Shown one piece after another: positions 9,038 to 38,859 of a DNA stretch of 43,596 nt. The first letter of the stretch is position 1. Each line of letters begins with the position of its first letter. The stretch is taken from sequence record PX871048.2; one strand, 5' to 3'. The translations under genes and the position numbers were made by a program. The DNA is from a phage. The notes beneath the pieces were generated by a model. It ran no database searches. It was given only the letters and a program-made list of their open reading frames with translations, and had not been told where the DNA came from.

Positions 9038-9064
9038 AAGGCCCCGTCTGGGGCCTTTTTTTTT
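9038..9064 (+). terminator. rho-independent terminator (GGCCCC-GTCT-GGGGCC plus T9)
   Basis: GC hairpin followed by T-run directly after tailspike stop. Confidence 0.75.
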
Positions 9065-9202
9065 CTACTCTTCTGATAACTTCTCCAGTACAAACGCCAG
9101 TTGCGCGTTGGCGGCGTCTCTTTGCTGCCGTAATCGTAGGACCTCTTCTTCAAGTTCCTTGATACGTTTTTGCAATGCTGGAATCGGGGCTATGATGTTC
9201 AT
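9065..9202 (-). CDS. small coiled-coil protein (45 aa)
   Basis: ATG overlaps stop of upstream minus gene as ATGA; below track size cutoff. Confidence 0.3.
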   Translation of the reverse strand: MNIIAPIPALQKRIKELEEEVLRLRQQRDAANAQLAFVLEKLSEE

Positions 9203-9384
9203 TTCTTACCTTCGCTTTTCTTGAAACTGCGCTTTATATCCGGCGGAGTGTAGCATCGTGAATTTTCGTACTTACCGTCCGAGCTTACCAAAACAAAGCT
9301 GTTGCCGTCTTTTGATATGTACTCGATGGTGAAAGTATTGAATGAATGTACGCTGTATATTTCGTCTCCAACATTAAGTTTCAT
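9199..9384 (-). CDS. hypothetical protein
   Basis: 61-aa ORF, 4-nt overlap with helicase gene. Confidence 0.4.
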   Translation of the reverse strand: MKLNVGDEIYSVHSFNTFTIEYISKDGNSFVLVSSDGKYENSRCYTPPDIKRSFKKSEGKK

Positions 9385-10811
9385 TTCTTACTCCTACGTT
9401 TCATGTAATTAAGCAGCTCTTCCTGTACAGATTTCTTCTCATCTGTACGCGCGGCAACAACCTCGTCCAGCGTGTCTTTAGCAACGATGTGATAGAGAAA
9501 CACCGGGCGCTCGTGGCCTGCCTGTTTCTGGCGGACCGGGCCTATACGCTCGACAACCTGCAAATAGTGCTCAAGGTTCCAGCCTTGCGAGATGAACGCC
9601 AGATGATGTCCGCCATCCTGTAAATTCAAACCATGCCCGGCTGACGCAGGGTGTACGCATAAGATTTCTATTTCGCCGCGGTTCCACGCTTCCATCTGCT
9701 TATTACCCTTAGCACCTTTGGCAAACGCCTGTGCTTGCGGGAATCGTTTAAGGATGCGCTCCAGTTCGTGCTTGAACTGATAGGCTACCAGTAGCGGCGC
9801 GCCCTGTAACTCCTCAACAATTGACTCCAGCGCATCCAGTTTCGTGTCGTGCACTTTCTCCCAGTCTTTTGTCGCTTCTCCGTCTGGTCCCGACACATAT
9901 ACGGCACCGGATGCAATCTGCAAACACTTCGACGTCTTCGCTGCCGCGTTAGCTGCCTCAACTTCTCCGCTCTCCAGTTCCGCAAATAACTTCTCCTCCA
10001 TATCTATGTACGCCTGACGCGCTTTCTTCGGCAGGTCGATTTCAACAGGTACGATAACCGGCGCTTCGCATCCGAACCACTCAGCGGCGTCAATCGTGAG
10101 ACTGATGTCCTTCATCTTCTGGTGGATTTCAGTATCCGCACCCGGGCGGGCGTGGTACTCACGTGCCATAGCCGATTTGCCTTTTTGCACCGAGTTAAAC
10201 CAGCGGTCGGTGAATGCCGTGTACGATGAACCAAGTCGCTCGCCTGCGTCGATAAACCAGTTCTGCCCCCACAGGTCTTTGAGGCCGTTTGGCGACGGCG
10301 TACCTGTCAGGTTAATGAACCGCTTAACCTTGCCGAACGCCACTTTGCTGAGTGCCTTCGCGCGCTTGCTGCCGCCAGAACGGCTACGGAAAGATTTAAG
10401 TTTCGTGCTTTCATCGGCAACGATAACCGTAAAAGGCCAGTCGTCTTTGCCGTAGTAGTCAATCAGCCACTCGATAACTTCGTAGTTCGTACACACTACG
10501 TTAGCATCCGACTCCAGCGCCGCGATGCGGCGCTTCTCTGAACCAGTCGCATCGACGACACGCAGACAAGGGAAGTTCCAACGTGCCTGTTCCGCGGGCC
10601 ACGTACCTGACGCAACACGTAAAGGGGCAAGAATTAACACTCGGTCGTCGTCATTAAGTTGCCCATTACGGAACAGTCGATTGAGAACCCACAACGTTGA
10701 CCCCGACTTGCCGCTGCCCATCGAAGCCCAAATATTACAGCGAGGGTGCCGCAGCATGAACGAAGTCATGAGCTTTTGGTACTCTCGACGGATAAATTTA
10801 GACATAATCAA
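9381..10811 (-). CDS. SF2 (SNF2/DEAD-like) DNA helicase
   Basis: Walker A SMGSGKSGST, Walker B VIVADEST, 476 aa. Confidence 0.75.
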   Translation of the reverse strand: MIMSKFIRREYQKLMTSFMLRHPRCNIWASMGSGKSGSTLWVLNRLFRNGQLNDDDRVLILAPLRVASGTWPAEQARWNFPCLRVVDATGSEKRRIAALESDANVVCTNYEVIEWLIDYYGKDDWPFTVIVADESTKLKSFRSRSGGSKRAKALSKVAFGKVKRFINLTGTPSPNGLKDLWGQNWFIDAGERLGSSYTAFTDRWFNSVQKGKSAMAREYHARPGADTEIHQKMKDISLTIDAAEWFGCEAPVIVPVEIDLPKKARQAYIDMEEKLFAELESGEVEAANAAAKTSKCLQIASGAVYVSGPDGEATKDWEKVHDTKLDALESIVEELQGAPLLVAYQFKHELERILKRFPQAQAFAKGAKGNKQMEAWNRGEIEILCVHPASAGHGLNLQDGGHHLAFISQGWNLEHYLQVVERIGPVRQKQAGHERPVFLYHIVAKDTLDEVVAARTDEKKSVQEELLNYMKRRSKK

Positions 10812-11002
10812 CCCTTAACGTAGAGCACCAGCTCTTTACGCCCGAACGCCGTAACGTTACCCGTTACATCTTCGATAACCAGTTTACCGTTCGACTCGAC
10901 GAACACCGTATCAACGGCAACCGGACGTCGGGTCTTAACGTTGAAAATCATGTCGCCCGGTACGATGTCACGTGCGGGTTTGCGGTCATATTCGTGTTTC
11001 AT
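10808..11002 (-). CDS. hypothetical protein
   Basis: 64-aa ORF overlapping helicase start by 4 nt; RBS AAGGA. Confidence 0.45.
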   Translation of the reverse strand: MKHEYDRKPARDIVPGDMIFNVKTRRPVAVDTVFVESNGKLVIEDVTGNVTAFGRKELVLYVKG

Positions 11003-11041: not shown

Positions 11042-11296
11042 TTAGTTAGATAATTCGCCTTGAACTTGCTTAATAAGTTCTCTGGCCGTTGTGAAGTCTA
11101 CGGACAGCCCTTTAGCGACGTCTTCCGCAAGCACCTTGTGGCCAACTGACCCGAAGCCCAGGATACGGTTTACTTCCGAAACCTTCATAGACCATGAGTA
11201 ATTAACTGACGCCCCTGTGTATTTACCGATACGAACAGATGAATCGATTGAACCAATAATCATGGTGTTTACTGACAGTTGAAGTTCGATAGCCAT
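11042..11296 (-). CDS. hypothetical protein
   Basis: 84-aa ORF directly downstream of minus promoter at about 11331-11359. Confidence 0.45.
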   Translation of the reverse strand: MAIELQLSVNTMIIGSIDSSVRIGKYTGASVNYSWSMKVSEVNRILGFGSVGHKVLAEDVAKGLSVDFTTARELIKQVQGELSN

Positions 11297-11297
11297 T

Positions 11298-11612
11298 TTA
11301 TAATTCCTTATATTGTTGAGGTATGTGCTTACTATAATAGTCTGCTATTAGGGTGTCAATCTGTTTTATCGAACCAACGACAAAAACATTCGCGCCACGT
11401 TTACGCATCCGCTCGTGCTCGCGTAACTGGTGTGGGTCTGGCTTCGTGCTTTCATCTTTCTTAACCTCAACGAACCAGATGATGCCGCCGGGGAGGATTA
11501 CCAACAGGTCGGGCGCTCCGTTTCGGCCCTCATACACTATCTTACGAACGAGGCCCCCCAGGGCCTCGAATCGGTCTTTCGCGTATTTCTGTACGCGGCC
11601 CTCTTTAGTCAT
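11298..11612 (-). CDS. VRR-NUC domain nuclease
   Basis: PD-(D/E)XK-like GAPDLLVILPGG..VEVKK motif; start taken at ATG 11612 (MTKEG), coupled to upstream micro-ORF via ATGA. Confidence 0.6.
   Translation of the reverse strand: MTKEGRVQKYAKDRFEALGGLVRKIVYEGRNGAPDLLVILPGGIIWFVEVKKDESTKPDPHQLREHERMRKRGANVFVVGSIKQIDTLIADYYSKHIPQQYKEL
11331..11359 (-). promoter_or_regulatory. sigma70-type promoter, class II (TTGACA-17-TATAGT) with AATAG-N4-CTATT palindrome in spacer
   Basis: minus-strand reading TTGACA CCCTAATAGCAGACTAT TATAGT. Confidence 0.55.
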
Positions 11613-11761
11613 GGGCGTAGAACCCAAGTAAGGAAAGCCCCTCCTAGAACGGCAACACCGACAAACTTAAAGAACAGGCCATAACAGAACATCGTGGCTA
11701 TTCCCGCCCCGAGTAACAGTGCAAGCATGGTTACTATTGCCCAAAATACAAACATTGTCAT
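11609..11761 (-). CDS. small membrane protein (50 aa, two hydrophobic segments)
   Basis: ATGA overlaps at both ends; hydrophobic; below track cutoff. Confidence 0.4.
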   Translation of the reverse strand: MTMFVFWAIVTMLALLLGAGIATMFCYGLFFKFVGVAVLGGAFLTWVLRP

Positions 11762-11847
11762 AATACACACCCCTCACGTTTCGTGTGCTCAATCCCGCAG
11801 CGCGGACAGATTCGACAGTCTTCTTCATAGAACCAGTAGATTTTCAT
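11758..11847 (-). CDS. 29-aa peptide with C-x2-C-x2-C motif
   Basis: ATGA overlap with both neighbours; MKIYWFYEEDCRICPRCG.. Confidence 0.3.
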   Translation of the reverse strand: MKIYWFYEEDCRICPRCGIEHTKREGCVL

Positions 11848-11975
11848 TCCAGCACCCACAGATAAATTGCGATGAACATACCTAATACGGCTACAATCAT
11901 GCCGTATTGGCCCTCGTGACAGTAGACACCGGCGGCAAATCCCGCCAGTACTGTGATAATCAGTTTACTTAGCAT
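11844..11975 (-). CDS. small membrane protein (43 aa)
   Basis: start overlaps last codons of polymerase gene; hydrophobic. Confidence 0.35.
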   Translation of the reverse strand: MLSKLIITVLAGFAAGVYCHEGQYGMIVAVLGMFIAIYLWVLE

Positions 11976-14238
11976 AACGGTACACCTCTCCCCCAGCCCA
12001 TGTTAACGGGAACCCTTCGGCCCACTCAGGTAATGAGCATAGCAGGTCACCCATCTCTTTAACCGTGTACTCTGGCGTGTCTGGCGTTTCGGCAACACAT
12101 TCGTCATGTACGTGGAGTACAATTGGGTAGCCCGCCGCCTCGACCGTCAGGAGTCCGTTAACCAGTAAATCACGGCACAACGCCTGGATGATGTTTTCAC
12201 ACAATTTTCCGCCGTGTGTGTACAAAGTTGTCCACTGGCGGGTGGTCTGATTTTCGCCCTGGTATTTAATGCGAACGTTAGTTGTTACACGCCCGTCCTC
12301 GTCGGTCTCTTTAGTGACGCTTAAGCCTATGCCAGGGTAGGACATGATGCGCCCCGACGGCAGCTCCACGCACAACCACCAACCTGGCACAAAGTTACCT
12401 TGTCTGTCTTTCTCCTTAGTACGCCAGATGCGAATAGCTCTGTCGCCGTTGGGGCGGACTCTGGCCCCCGCCCAAAACTCTCGTCCCGGATTTCTAATTG
12501 CAGCAATCACCGAATCCTTAAGGTCGTTCCAGAATTTCACTGTTTCCGGATGGGCCTCACGCCACATGCGCTTGATAGCATCGCAAGTGCGCCAGACTTC
12601 TTTAGGCAGCACATAAGAGGCCCGTTCATCCTTTTTACCGGGTTTTGGGGGCCGCTTAGCCTCCTGAATCCGCGCCCATTCATAGCCTCGGGCAGTGGCG
12701 GCCCATATATGGTCAGGGAATGTTCCCCGCATTGTCTCCGTCATTTTAAAGAGGTCCAGCCCGTAAGTTTTAGCCATAGTCATGAAGGCCCCCACGCCCC
12801 CCTCGTAGCCGAGGCCGAGCTCGCAACATTTCCCGACCTGTCGCAGGTCTTTACGGGTGGCTTTCAGTTCTATGGGGTCCATACCAAACATCTTGCCCGC
12901 AGTGGCGCAATAAATATCAATCCCCGCGCGGAACGTCTCAAGCGCGGATGTCTCCCCCGCGGTCCAGGCCAACCCGCGCCCTTCTACGTTTGAGTAGTCG
13001 GCAACGAGCAACTTATTACCCTTTTCAGGGATGATGCAACTGCGAACAGTCGAGGCTGTCAGCTTGGATACGTCGAAACGACGGTGCGCCCGACCCTTTA
13101 GCAGCAGATTGATGCCGAACGATAGGGGGTTGAGACGACGGTTCCAGTCTTCGTCGGACTCCCACGGCTGGCGCACAAGTTTCTTTTCCTCGTTAGTCGG
13201 GTCGTCGTGGTAGTACCCGCGCGACAGGTTCTGCGGTTGGAACCCTTTACCCGCAAATCGTAAAGTGCGCTTTGCCCCACCGTACTGGATGCAACCGCGG
13301 CGGCGGCCGTCTTTGGACCGTCCTAGCAGGAGCGGTTTGTATTTTGTCGACGCCGTGGAGGCCGCGCCGAGGCGCATCTCAATGATTGTGCGCGCATCGT
13401 CAGGTAAGTCGTCGTCCTCTAGCAAACCTTCGAGCGTTGCTTTCTGTGCATTATAGATATTGTAGGCCGGTGCCAGCTCCCGAAGGATTGGCAGGAAGTC
13501 TTTACCCGTTAGCTTCCCGCCAAATTTAGCCCTGGCCTCGTTTTTTAGCTCTTGCTTGTGGCGTTCAACTGCTGCTACCGCCGCCTCAGCAAGAGCCGCA
13601 TCAACAAAGAAGCCTCGGTCGTTGATTAACTGGTCAAGTTCAAGTACACGGTCCTCGAAATCGGAGTTACCCCAACGTGGCAGCTTATGGAAGACTTCAC
13701 GCATCGCTGTGATGTCGCTCACGGCATACTTGATGAACAGGGCCCACTCGTCAGGGTGAGTTTCTGCGGTGTAGCGGCGGATTTTGTAGTTCTTCGGCGT
13801 CGGTTTAGAGAAACGCTTAATCAGCGCCTTGCCGCGTTTATCTTTTGCATTGTCGGCGGATACGCCCAGCACTTCGCACAATGCGTCAAGTGACCCCGGC
13901 AGCGCGTGACGAAACGCCCAAATCATCGTATCAATGGTGTTGCTTACCGGAATATCAAAGTCCCAGCAGTGCTTCATGACGAGCCTGTCGAACATTGAGC
14001 CGTTGTGCCACACCATCTTAATACGACTGTTTGGCTTAACCAGGCGGCGCAAGGCGCGATGCAAATCCCCCGGCATGTCGCTGCCGTCAGTGCAGTCCCA
14101 TACCTGAACAGGCTCGTCATCAAAAGCATAGGTGCAGATGAGCACTTCGGTAGTCGGGTGTTCGGCGTAAGCATAGGAGCCGACTTTCTTCAAATCGGCT
14201 TCGGAGAAGGTTTCAAAGTCTAAGAACAGATAACTCAT
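11965..14238 (-). CDS. family A DNA polymerase with 3-prime-5-prime exonuclease domain
   Basis: Exo I motif LDFETFS; polymerase motif A LLVADYSNVEGR, motif B RQVGKCCELGLGYEGG, motif C HVHDE; 757 aa. Confidence 0.9.
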   Translation of the reverse strand: MSYLFLDFETFSEADLKKVGSYAYAEHPTTEVLICTYAFDDEPVQVWDCTDGSDMPGDLHRALRRLVKPNSRIKMVWHNGSMFDRLVMKHCWDFDIPVSNTIDTMIWAFRHALPGSLDALCEVLGVSADNAKDKRGKALIKRFSKPTPKNYKIRRYTAETHPDEWALFIKYAVSDITAMREVFHKLPRWGNSDFEDRVLELDQLINDRGFFVDAALAEAAVAAVERHKQELKNEARAKFGGKLTGKDFLPILRELAPAYNIYNAQKATLEGLLEDDDLPDDARTIIEMRLGAASTASTKYKPLLLGRSKDGRRRGCIQYGGAKRTLRFAGKGFQPQNLSRGYYHDDPTNEEKKLVRQPWESDEDWNRRLNPLSFGINLLLKGRAHRRFDVSKLTASTVRSCIIPEKGNKLLVADYSNVEGRGLAWTAGETSALETFRAGIDIYCATAGKMFGMDPIELKATRKDLRQVGKCCELGLGYEGGVGAFMTMAKTYGLDLFKMTETMRGTFPDHIWAATARGYEWARIQEAKRPPKPGKKDERASYVLPKEVWRTCDAIKRMWREAHPETVKFWNDLKDSVIAAIRNPGREFWAGARVRPNGDRAIRIWRTKEKDRQGNFVPGWWLCVELPSGRIMSYPGIGLSVTKETDEDGRVTTNVRIKYQGENQTTRQWTTLYTHGGKLCENIIQALCRDLLVNGLLTVEAAGYPIVLHVHDECVAETPDTPEYTVKEMGDLLCSLPEWAEGFPLTWAGGEVYRYAK

Positions 14239-14987: not shown

Positions 14988-15016
14988 AATATAATAGCTA
15001 ACTATTCAGGTGTCAA
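14988..15016 (-). promoter_or_regulatory. sigma70-type promoter, class II (TTGACA-17-TATATT) with AATAG-N4-CTATT palindrome
   Basis: minus-strand reading TTGACA CCTGAATAGTTAGCTAT TATATT; leader contains hairpin CCGGGAACTGCCCGG. Confidence 0.55.
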
Positions 15017-38054: not shown

Positions 38055-38446
38055 GTTTCGCGCTTGATGTATCTAAGTTCGTCGAGAAGGCGAAGAAGAA
38101 TCCCGAGAAGGTGATGCGTCAGGTGTCTATCAAACTGTTTTCCGCTATTATAAAGGCGAGTCCGGTGGACACTGGGCGTTTTCGTATGAACTGGATGGCA
38201 TCTGGCGGAACTCCGGCTTCTGGAACTACAGATGCTACCGACAAGTCCGGCAACACTGCAACCGGGAATGTCACAAATTTCGTACTGAAAGCCGCAGACT
38301 GGAAGGAGTTCACGCTGACCAATAACCTGCCGTATGCGCAACGGCTGGAGTACGGTTGGTCACAACAGGCCCCAGCCGGGATGGTCAGGACTAACGTGTC
38401 TCGCTTCCAGCAACTAATTAACGAAGAAGCCAACAAGGTGAAATGA
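38051..38446 (+). CDS. tail completion / neck protein
   Basis: 131 aa, synteny. Confidence 0.45.
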   Translation: MSFALDVSKFVEKAKKNPEKVMRQVSIKLFSAIIKASPVDTGRFRMNWMASGGTPASGTTDATDKSGNTATGNVTNFVLKAADWKEFTLTNNLPYAQRLEYGWSQQAPAGMVRTNVSRFQQLINEEANKVK

Positions 38447-38859
38447 TGGGCTACTTTGAGGACTTAACAAAAGCGTTTGACGTGCCGCTGGTATCGTTCG
38501 GAACCGCCAACGGCATCAAGGTTGCGCTTGAAAACATCGACGCGCCAACGTCAACCAATACCCCGTATCTGGCAAGTTACATGTTGCTCGCTGATACGGA
38601 GCAGGCGGATTTGTTCTTCACGGAACAACGCTCAGGTGTTTATCAGGTCGACATTAACTACGCATCGGTGAAAGGTAGCGCGCCAATCAATAAAATGGCA
38701 GACTTACTTAACACGGCATTCAAAGCAGGTAAGTCATTTTCACGTAACGACATCTGCGCCGAGGTTCAATCGGTTAGCCTGGGGCCACTGATTGTAGAAA
38801 ACGGATGGGCCAAACGACCATTGTCAATTAACTTTATTGCATTCACCAAGAGGCTGTGA
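38443..38859 (+). CDS. tail terminator-like protein
   Basis: 138 aa immediately before major tail gene. Confidence 0.4.
   Translation: MMGYFEDLTKAFDVPLVSFGTANGIKVALENIDAPTSTNTPYLASYMLLADTEQADLFFTEQRSGVYQVDINYASVKGSAPINKMADLLNTAFKAGKSFSRNDICAEVQSVSLGPLIVENGWAKRPLSINFIAFTKRL

Follow-up and report, generated by a model that had tools for sequence, protein, structure and literature searches.

The closest described counterparts of the locus considered here are unnamed genes of related phages. Three consecutive coding sequences (CDS) of Escherichia phage hz69 are annotated as hypothetical proteins (UTQ77376-UTQ77378), and so are those of phage Snoke (CPT_Snoke_039 to 041). A run of small genes at a similar position is found in phage T7, where genes 5.3, 5.5, 5.7, and 5.9 are located between the DNA polymerase gene (gene 5) and the exonuclease gene (gene 6), and some of their products target host proteins. 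Many phage operons show translational coupling through ATGA stop/start overlaps, as do the trpE-trpD and trpB-trpA pairs of Escherichia coli.

In this work, we analyze three minus-strand micro-ORFs, referred to as o1, o2, and o3, in a phage DNA sequence of 43,596 nt (record PX871048.2), called the window below. They sit between the genes for a family A DNA polymerase I and a VRR-NUC nuclease. The phage belongs to the Guernseyvirinae (Kagunavirus), and the long minus-strand operon around these genes, which is one of replication and recombination, is bracketed by a strong promoter-like site and a bidirectional terminator (Table 1). Escherichia phages AV104 and hz69 and several records labelled 'Kagunavirus' match the region of this interval at about 98% identity, and many other Guernseyvirinae (Kagunavirus, Jerseyvirus) from Escherichia and Salmonella match it at 75-90%. 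In length, the window is close to the complete genomes of these phages. The hz69 proteins share 98-100% identity with the products of o1, o2, and o3, and their sizes, order, and 4-nt overlaps are the same; the 4-nt overlaps are found in Snoke as well. Each product also matches one PHROG family over nearly the whole protein and profile: o1 phrog_10404 (E 1.7e-30), o2 phrog_38225 (E 2.5e-22), and o3 phrog_14925 (E 2.8e-32). Neither these families nor the hz69 and Snoke CDS differ materially from the window genes, which are already known as unnamed CDS and PHROG members; the finding is correct but ordinary. A literature search revealed no experimental work specific to o1, o2, or o3, and no proteomic or ribosome-profiling data on them.

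Coding status of the micro-ORFs between the polymerase and VRR-NUC genes

Table 1. Features of the polymerase to VRR-NUC region and its operon, with positions in the window.
Feature	Coordinates	Strand	Product	Details
DNA polymerase I (family A)	11965..14238	minus	757 aa	stop TAA 11967..11965
o1	11844..11975	minus	43 aa, MLSKLIITVLAGFAAGVYCHEGQYGMIVAVLGMFIAIYLWVLE	ATG 11975, stop TGA 11846..11844
o2	11758..11847	minus	29 aa, MKIYWFYEEDCRICPRCGIEHTKREGCVL	ATG 11847, stop TGA 11760..11758
o3	11609..11761	minus	50 aa, MTMFVFWAIV...WVLRP	ATG 11761, stop TGA 11611..11609
VRR-NUC / Holliday-junction-resolvase-type nuclease	11298..11612	minus	104 aa	ATG 11612
Plus-strand ORF	11694..11885	plus	63 aa	start and stop kept in 4 of 17 same-architecture loci
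Plus-strand ORF	11353..11631	plus	92 aa	start and stop kept in 5 of 17 same-architecture loci
Plus-strand ORF	11430..11684	plus	84 aa	open in 14 of 17 same-architecture loci; heavy divergence
Rejected minus-strand ORF	11667..11828	minus	53 aa, MKKTVES...	
Promoter-like site, strong	15016..14988			operon bracket
Terminator, bidirectional	9038..9057			operon bracket
Promoter-like site, weak	11737..11764	plus		score 9/12
'-10' of the weak site	11759..11764	plus		reverse complement of conserved ATTATG at the o2/o3 junction

The interval between the polymerase and VRR-NUC genes measures 352 nt rather than the 340 given in the first-pass annotation. As that annotation had proposed, it is filled on the minus strand by ORFs of 43, 29, and 50 codons, which can be read directly from the window sequence. 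Its further claim that each of them starts in an ATGA overlap holds for the o1/o2, o2/o3, and o3/VRR-NUC junctions, but the polymerase and o1 genes share an 11-nt overlap, in which the o1 ATG lies within the TATGCT of the polymerase gene end (...CGT TAT GCT AAG TAA; polymerase end ...TATGCTAAGTAA). The nuclease at the far side matches phrog_93 (8.6e-33) and phrog_5702 (5.2e-20), and the VRR-NUC label is the one used in hz69.

By chance, a comparable chain of ORFs tiled the region in only 17 of 5000 dinucleotide shuffles under liberal criteria, and conservation in relatives is stronger evidence than this result. We compared 46 loci, comprising the window, 3 GenBank loci, and 42 IMG/VR loci. The dN/dS values were 0.21 for o1, 0.13 for o2, and 0.18 for o3, next to 0.11 for the polymerase C-terminus and 0.15 for VRR-NUC. 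Stops or frameshifts in relatives had been named beforehand as the observation that would count against the micro-ORFs; no internal stop occurred in the distinct sequences of o1 (36), o2 (41), or o3 (22), nor in those of the polymerase C-terminus and VRR-NUC (42 each). The overlaps are conserved as well, since nearly every locus with an o1/o2, o2/o3, or o3/VRR-NUC junction keeps ATGA, with GTGA in a few.

The alternative frames behave differently: dN/dS is at least 0.76 in the two other sense frames and in two of the three antisense frames, and all five contain stops in some or all sequences. The low dN/dS of the remaining antisense frame is an artefact of wobble positions common with the real frame; stops close it in every sequence or in every sequence except one. 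The low ratios in the proposed frames only, together with the open frames, bear out the view that the three minus-strand micro-ORFs are real genes. As judged from these codon comparisons, purifying selection acts on the amino-acid sequences of o1, o2, and o3, and we are nearly certain that all three encode proteins.

The opposite assignment would make the plus-strand ORFs (63, 84, and 92 aa) the genes and treat the minus-strand micro-ORFs as accidents. In its favor, the plus-strand ORFs are longer and appear in a naive ORF track. Their starts are lost or stops gained in relatives, as the retention counts in Table 1 indicate, their divergence is high, and the antisense frames either contain stops or have dN/dS above 0.78. 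Even the 84-aa ORF, which stays open most often, shows heavy divergence, in line with a position opposite a real gene. The reading of these ORFs as genes is already refuted by the frame tests and by conservation in relatives, so that its probability is practically negligible; the earlier description of them as antisense to the minus-strand arrangement was accurate. A minus-strand ORF of 53 aa was also rejected, as in many loci it is cut short at 21-28 aa or has no ATG, and dN/dS exceeds 1 in its frames.

The chain of ATGA overlaps is in itself unremarkable and reflects the ordinary compact style of the phage genome. In hz69, 4-nt overlaps occur at 19 of 67 same-strand junctions and overlaps of any length at 37 of 67; at three separate places, three 4-nt overlaps follow one another directly, and 19 of 76 genes encode products of 60 aa or less. 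Given how frequent such overlaps are genome-wide, the chain may represent compact packing without any special regulatory design.

Architectures of the interval and its predicted translation

Eight architectures were found among the 46 loci. The arrangement of the window, o1-o2-o3, is present in 17 loci and o1-o2 in 13. An o1N::o2 fusion is followed by o3 in 2 loci and stands alone in 4, while a 67-aa CxxC protein, designated X, is found in o1-o2-X-o3 (4 loci) and o1-o2-X (2 loci). The remaining loci carry o1-o2 with an HNH endonuclease or an HNH remnant (2 loci) or with a 25-aa transmembrane (TM) ORF (2 loci). Thus counted, o2 is present in all 46 loci, o1 is missing from 6, and o3 occurs in 23. 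The interval is a cassette hot spot, and the pattern across close relatives identifies the genes as separable cassettes, with o2 near-universal and the presence or absence of o1 and o3 mutually independent.

In the six loci without o1, a 116-nt deletion leaves only the first 7 codons of o1, fused in frame to o2, and the product begins MLSKLII-YYFREEDC.... The length of this deletion is not a multiple of 3 because o1 and o2 lie in different frames, and the in-frame joining is strong evidence that o2 must be translated. The reverse arrangement is also found: on three contigs, two of which were read (L046 and L047, from different samples), o2 is deleted, and residues 1-15 of o1 are fused in frame to residues 24-50 of o3 at a GCCGCG microhomology. 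The fused gene remains ATGA-linked to VRR-NUC. The existence of this natural lineage indicates that o2 is not strictly essential.

To compare start sites, the anti-Shine-Dalgarno duplex energy was calculated for the 18 nt 5' of each start and expressed as a median over the 46 loci; the reference medians are -6.9 kcal/mol for the annotated starts of hz69 and -2.2 kcal/mol for random 18-mers. The start of o1 (-6.6 kcal/mol) is preceded by a good Shine-Dalgarno-like sequence, GGGGGAGAGGTG, inside the polymerase 3' end, and that of o3 (-8.5 kcal/mol) by a good Shine-Dalgarno site, GAGGGGTG, inside the o2 3' end. The latter site would serve whichever gene comes next, be it o3, X, the HNH gene, the short TM ORF, or VRR-NUC, and the VRR-NUC start reaches -8.8 kcal/mol when it directly follows o2. 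The fused o1N::o2 start has a median of -6.1 kcal/mol. No Shine-Dalgarno site, and hence no ribosome-binding site of its own, is present at the o2 start after o1 (-3.7 kcal/mol) or at the VRR-NUC start after o3 (-3.1 kcal/mol), although weak complementarity of this kind alone is no proof of dependence on reinitiation. The lack of own sites suggests that o2 and VRR-NUC probably depend on reinitiation at ATGA.

We propose that the interval would be translated as two units, each made of a Shine-Dalgarno site and a coupled pair: o1 followed by o2, then o3 followed by VRR-NUC. The site in the polymerase 3' end would drive o1, and ribosomes ending o1 would reinitiate at the overlapping ATG of o2; GAGGGGTG would drive o3 in the same manner, with reinitiation at the VRR-NUC ATG. 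In relatives lacking o1, o2 with its 7 codons of o1 would use the o1 start directly, and in relatives lacking o3, where VRR-NUC follows o2, the nuclease gene would stand directly behind the o2 Shine-Dalgarno site. On this scheme, o1 and o3 may be regarded as cassettes that separate a gene from its Shine-Dalgarno site and relay ribosomes through ATGA. Based on the conserved ATGA/GTGA junctions, start-site complementarity, and the lack of any strong promoter or terminator in the interval, we consider coupling of this form moderately likely.

A rival reading holds that the ORFs are mere ribosome relays or spacers that bridge the polymerase stop to the VRR-NUC start and set a low, coupled level of the nuclease, their peptides being functionless. 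It would agree with the unbroken ORF chain that leads into the VRR-NUC ATG in every architecture, deletion and fusion variants included, and with the missing Shine-Dalgarno site of VRR-NUC whenever o3 precedes it. However, the dN/dS range of 0.13 to 0.21 points to selection on amino acids, of a strength similar to that on the flanking enzymes, and the short architectures place VRR-NUC directly behind a Shine-Dalgarno site, where a relay is not needed. We therefore regard functionless peptides as very unlikely and retain the view that o1 and o3 are protein-coding cassettes.

Putative properties of the micro-proteins

The first-pass annotation described two of the ORFs as hydrophobic, in agreement with GRAVY values of 1.47 for o1 and 1.74 for o3 against -0.43 for o2. 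The o1 protein contains two hydrophobic segments flanking a conserved CHEGQYG, and o3 is almost entirely hydrophobic, with the small-residue motifs GAGIA and GGAF; hydropathy in 11-residue windows reaches 3.1 in these proteins. AF2 predicts o3 as a single helix over residues 2-48 (pLDDT 91.5), and the hydrophobic segments are long enough for a bilayer. The predicted 47-residue helix would be compatible with one span as well as with a hairpin. Location in the membrane is very likely for both, and they may be treated as putative small membrane proteins. An origin of o1 and o3 as paralogues by tandem duplication was rejected, as hhalign gave a probability of 0.5% and E 0.11, the sole aligned part being an AG(F/I)AA..C motif.

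The two proteins would insert into the inner membrane and act as accessory host-interaction factors, for example in exclusion or in the modulation of membrane proteins. Their dispensability among near-identical phages makes such a function more plausible than a part in the replisome. Another possibility is that o1 and o3 are toxin-like or selfish membrane peptides, of the type I toxin or holin kind, under antisense control from the plus strand. Hok/TisB-type peptides are small and hydrophobic, and o1 and o3 resemble them in both respects; a weak plus-strand promoter-like site is also present in the interval. The '-10' of this site, which scores 9 of 12, is merely the reverse complement of the conserved ATTATG (Table 1). 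The interval has no Rfam match, to an antisense RNA or any other element, and no strong promoter or terminator was found within it, so an own promoter and antisense RNA for o1 and o3 are missing. Moreover, the ORFs are probably coupled to essential operon genes instead of being regulated separately, and the endolysin gene of hz69 is annotated far from the operon (record 38225-38710). We consider toxin-like or holin-like peptides highly improbable, and accessory host-interaction factors remain our preferred interpretation of o1 and o3.

The o2 protein contains the C-x2-C-x2-C motif reported earlier (C11, C14, and C17), with a CPRCG knuckle followed by H21 and C27. All 46 loci keep C14 and C27; C17 and H21 each differ in a single locus, and C11, the first cysteine of the motif, is R or F in 6 of 46. 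Four candidate ligands are left: C14, C17, H21, and C27. The protein resembles CPxCG zinc-ribbon or zinc-knuckle modules, such as those of COX5B, Nop10, and RNA polymerase subunit M, in that a beta-strand-like YWFYEED precedes C-P-R-C-G; in contrast, it has only 29 aa, half a classical ribbon, and its matches have E of at least 0.4. Zinc-ribbon knuckles (COX5B, Nop10, RpoM) were the sole resemblances in a PDB sequence search (best E 0.4, non-significant), the best Pfam match had a non-significant E of 0.22, and the AF2 model was unusable (pLDDT 58.5). On the basis of the conserved residues, we lean slightly toward o2 binding zinc. It would then be a cytoplasmic zinc-knuckle-like micro-protein working with replication or recombination proteins or with their nucleic-acid substrates.

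It can also be imagined that o1, o2, and o3 form one membrane-tethered unit, in which a zinc-knuckle head, o2, is held by o1 and/or o3 and possibly localizes replication or recombination. The membrane proteins p1 and p16.7 of phage phi29 have such a localizing function, and the analogy is encouraged by the adjacency and probable coupling of the three genes within a replication operon. Natural frameshift fusions exist as well, joining o1 and o2 into products of 72-73 aa (P0167, P0170 to P0172, and P0174) or o2 and o3 into products of 79 aa (P0013, P0058, and P0087). These fusions are rare, however, and the one inspected (L048) has a homopolymer run lengthened from G4 to G5, which may be a sequencing error; o1 and o3 are also independently missing in many close relatives that keep o2. 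A tethered unit is therefore unlikely, and we continue to treat o2 as a separate cytoplasmic protein.

The specific physiological roles of o1, o2, and o3, drawn from composition, context, and distribution, are tentative at best. An extended proposal, rather doubtful in its entirety, would view the interval as a landing pad for micro-gene cassettes (o1, o3, the 25-aa TM ORF, the 67-aa CxxC protein, and HNH endonucleases). Each would enter precisely between a gene and the Shine-Dalgarno site serving it, take over that site, and pass ribosomes on via ATGA. In the same proposal, the 29-aa o2 would assist the polymerase/resolvase module throughout the subfamily as a zinc-knuckle cofactor, and o1 and o3, as micro-proteins of the membrane, would be directed against host or competitor functions. 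If this were true, accessory genes could be gained and lost without disturbing the expression of o2 and the nuclease. The overall account, combining coding genes, cassettes, coupling, and roles as proposed, is likely.

Distribution and comparison with known systems

GenBank phage records with o2 number about 445, those with o1 about 224, and those with o3 about 122; all of them belong to Guernseyvirinae, and presence does not follow host genus. Searches of 5.8 billion proteins gave 98 (o3) and 76 (o1) protein clusters, nearly all of them full-length matches with at least 76% identity, and many on contigs of 40-45 kb; no homologues of o1 and o3 outside close relatives were found. A 33-aa extended o2 query, run exhaustively with HMMER against 1.84 billion representatives, yielded the family only, the sole non-family match being a repetitive junk protein (P0176), and none of the three proteins has a Pfam family. 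As far as these searches reach, o1, o2, and o3 are restricted to Guernseyvirinae. Within this group, the polymerase C-terminus of phage LSPA1 shares 99% identity with that of the window, but identity is only 67% in o1 and 76% in VRR-NUC, which puts recombination breakpoints at gene boundaries.

The value of these results lies chiefly in annotation, as the minus-strand micro-ORFs, not the plus-strand ORFs, should be called here. The o2 gene in particular is under-annotated, being absent from the annotation of several RefSeq genomes, including those of the type phage Jersey, LSPA1, and K1ind1. Isolation of Guernseyvirinae for phage therapy of E. coli and Salmonella is widespread, and knowledge of conserved micro-proteins in their replication operon, putative membrane proteins and a zinc-knuckle-like one, is useful, if unsurprising. 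The eight architectures, with their unbroken coupled chain into the nuclease gene, illustrate neatly how small accessory genes can be exchanged in nature inside an operon without breaking downstream translation, and the pattern of Shine-Dalgarno sites and reinitiation leads to clean experimental predictions.

Among known systems, Dhillonvirus phage Teewinot has the same synteny of DNA polymerase I, Holliday junction resolvase, and helicase genes. A single 200-aa ORF lies between its polymerase and resolvase genes, and micro-ORFs like o1-o3 are absent from this interval; the micro-ORFs are thus seen in Guernseyvirinae only. Phage T7 is similar in placing a run of tiny, dispensable genes between family A DNA polymerase and nuclease genes of a lytic replication module. 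The likeness to genes 5.3-5.9 is one of layout; searches with o1, o2, and o3 returned Guernseyvirinae alone, and the T7 proteins are soluble, whereas two of the three in the window are hydrophobic. In translation, the locus resembles the trp operon in that its 4-nt stop/start overlaps are kept across relatives and that the downstream genes o2 and VRR-NUC lack Shine-Dalgarno complementarity. It differs from trp-type coupling in that o1 and o3 own good Shine-Dalgarno sites, so that two of the four junctions, and no more, look reinitiation-dependent.

Mobile genes between the polymerase and VRR-NUC genes

The interval between the polymerase and VRR-NUC genes serves mobile genes as a landing site, and in some relatives it contains HNH-type homing endonuclease ORFs, one of them a remnant and another lying between the polymerase gene and o1, the first of three minus-strand micro-ORFs (o1 and o3, hydrophobic; o2, Cys-rich). 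The cassette named X, a CxxC protein, occurs both with and without o3 and is joined to its neighbors by ATGA-coupled junctions at both ends; its sole resemblance, to the A2L zinc-ribbon, is weak (Pfam, E 0.0047, below the Pfam cut-off). In L028 and L039, a short hydrophobic ORF unrelated to o3 takes the place of the latter, and its junction with VRR-NUC is tight (TGATG or TAATG).

Features of the interval in related loci (L-numbers, locus coordinates) and of the downstream operon (window coordinates)
Feature	Locus or strand	Coordinates	Remarks
HNH-type homing endonuclease ORF, 168 aa	L027	2008-2505	polymerase to VRR-NUC interval
HNH-type homing endonuclease remnant, 43 aa	L044	2370-2492	polymerase to VRR-NUC interval
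HNH-type homing endonuclease ORF, 235 aa	L029	1441-2148	between polymerase and o1; N-terminus MKKCSRCG
Cassette X, 67 aa	L005, L006, L018, L034	~2161-2355	after o2; MSNKPFSKKLAALVDMPEWEF...CAGCTHKGVYY...
Cassette X, 67 aa	L024, L040	~2310-2504	after o2
Short hydrophobic ORF, ~23-25 aa	L028; L039	2424-2501; 2430-2501	o3 position; MTMLTTIMIIVAVFLGVAVLSKVTD; MITIIAVLVALLLGAAIFSRIIG
Natural in-frame fusion o1(1-15)::o3(24-50)	L046; L047	1501-1629; 1501-1629	joined at GCCGCG microhomology
o2::o3 fusion, 79 aa	L048	1501-1740	one additional G
Promoter-like site	(-)	11359..11331	within VRR-NUC 3' end; TTGACA-17-TATAGT, 11/12 positions matched
Helicase	(-)	ends 9381	first in second 4-nt-overlap chain
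61-aa ORF	(-)	9199..9384	second in chain
45-aa coiled-coil ORF	(-)	9065..9202	last in chain; weakly resembles DUF1192 and ZapB
Bidirectional terminator		9038..9057	after 45-aa ORF, facing tailspike gene

Fusions, a mosaic breakpoint and the annotation of o2

The o1::o3 fusion, in which o2 is wholly deleted and the ATGA link to VRR-NUC is kept, is present on three contigs, of which the two that were read come from different samples. In L048, the GAGGGGTG Shine-Dalgarno site near the end of o2 (3' end) has the extra G in its GGGG stretch, joining o2 to o3; this fusion, which the fusion protein P0058 resembles, could be genuine or could stem from a sequencing error in the homopolymer. Salmonella phage LSPA1 (L003 1687-2599) shares 99% identity with the window in the polymerase C-terminus, vs 67% in o1 and 76% in VRR-NUC, a pattern that places its mosaic breakpoint at the polymerase/o1 boundary.

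In several subfamily reference genomes, including those of phage Jersey (NC_021777; L051 1201-1287), LSPA1 and K1ind1, the 29-aa o2 is intact yet unannotated. An alternative-frame ORF of 53 aa (MKKTVESVRAAGLS..., 11667..11828, minus strand), overlapping o2 and o3, was rejected as spurious because many relatives have it only in truncated form or without a start codon, and purifying selection on it was not seen.

Downstream part of the operon

The promoter-like site lies upstream of an 84-aa gene at 11296, and the phage Jersey record annotates a promoter at the equivalent position. The operon is closed by a second run of 4-nt overlaps (9065..9384, minus strand). At 10803..11002 (minus strand), a 64-aa gene directly adjoins the SNF2-type helicase, whereas in the near-identical Escherichia phage hz69 a 684-nt DNA cytosine methyltransferase gene separates the two; the window phage thus lacks this methyltransferase.
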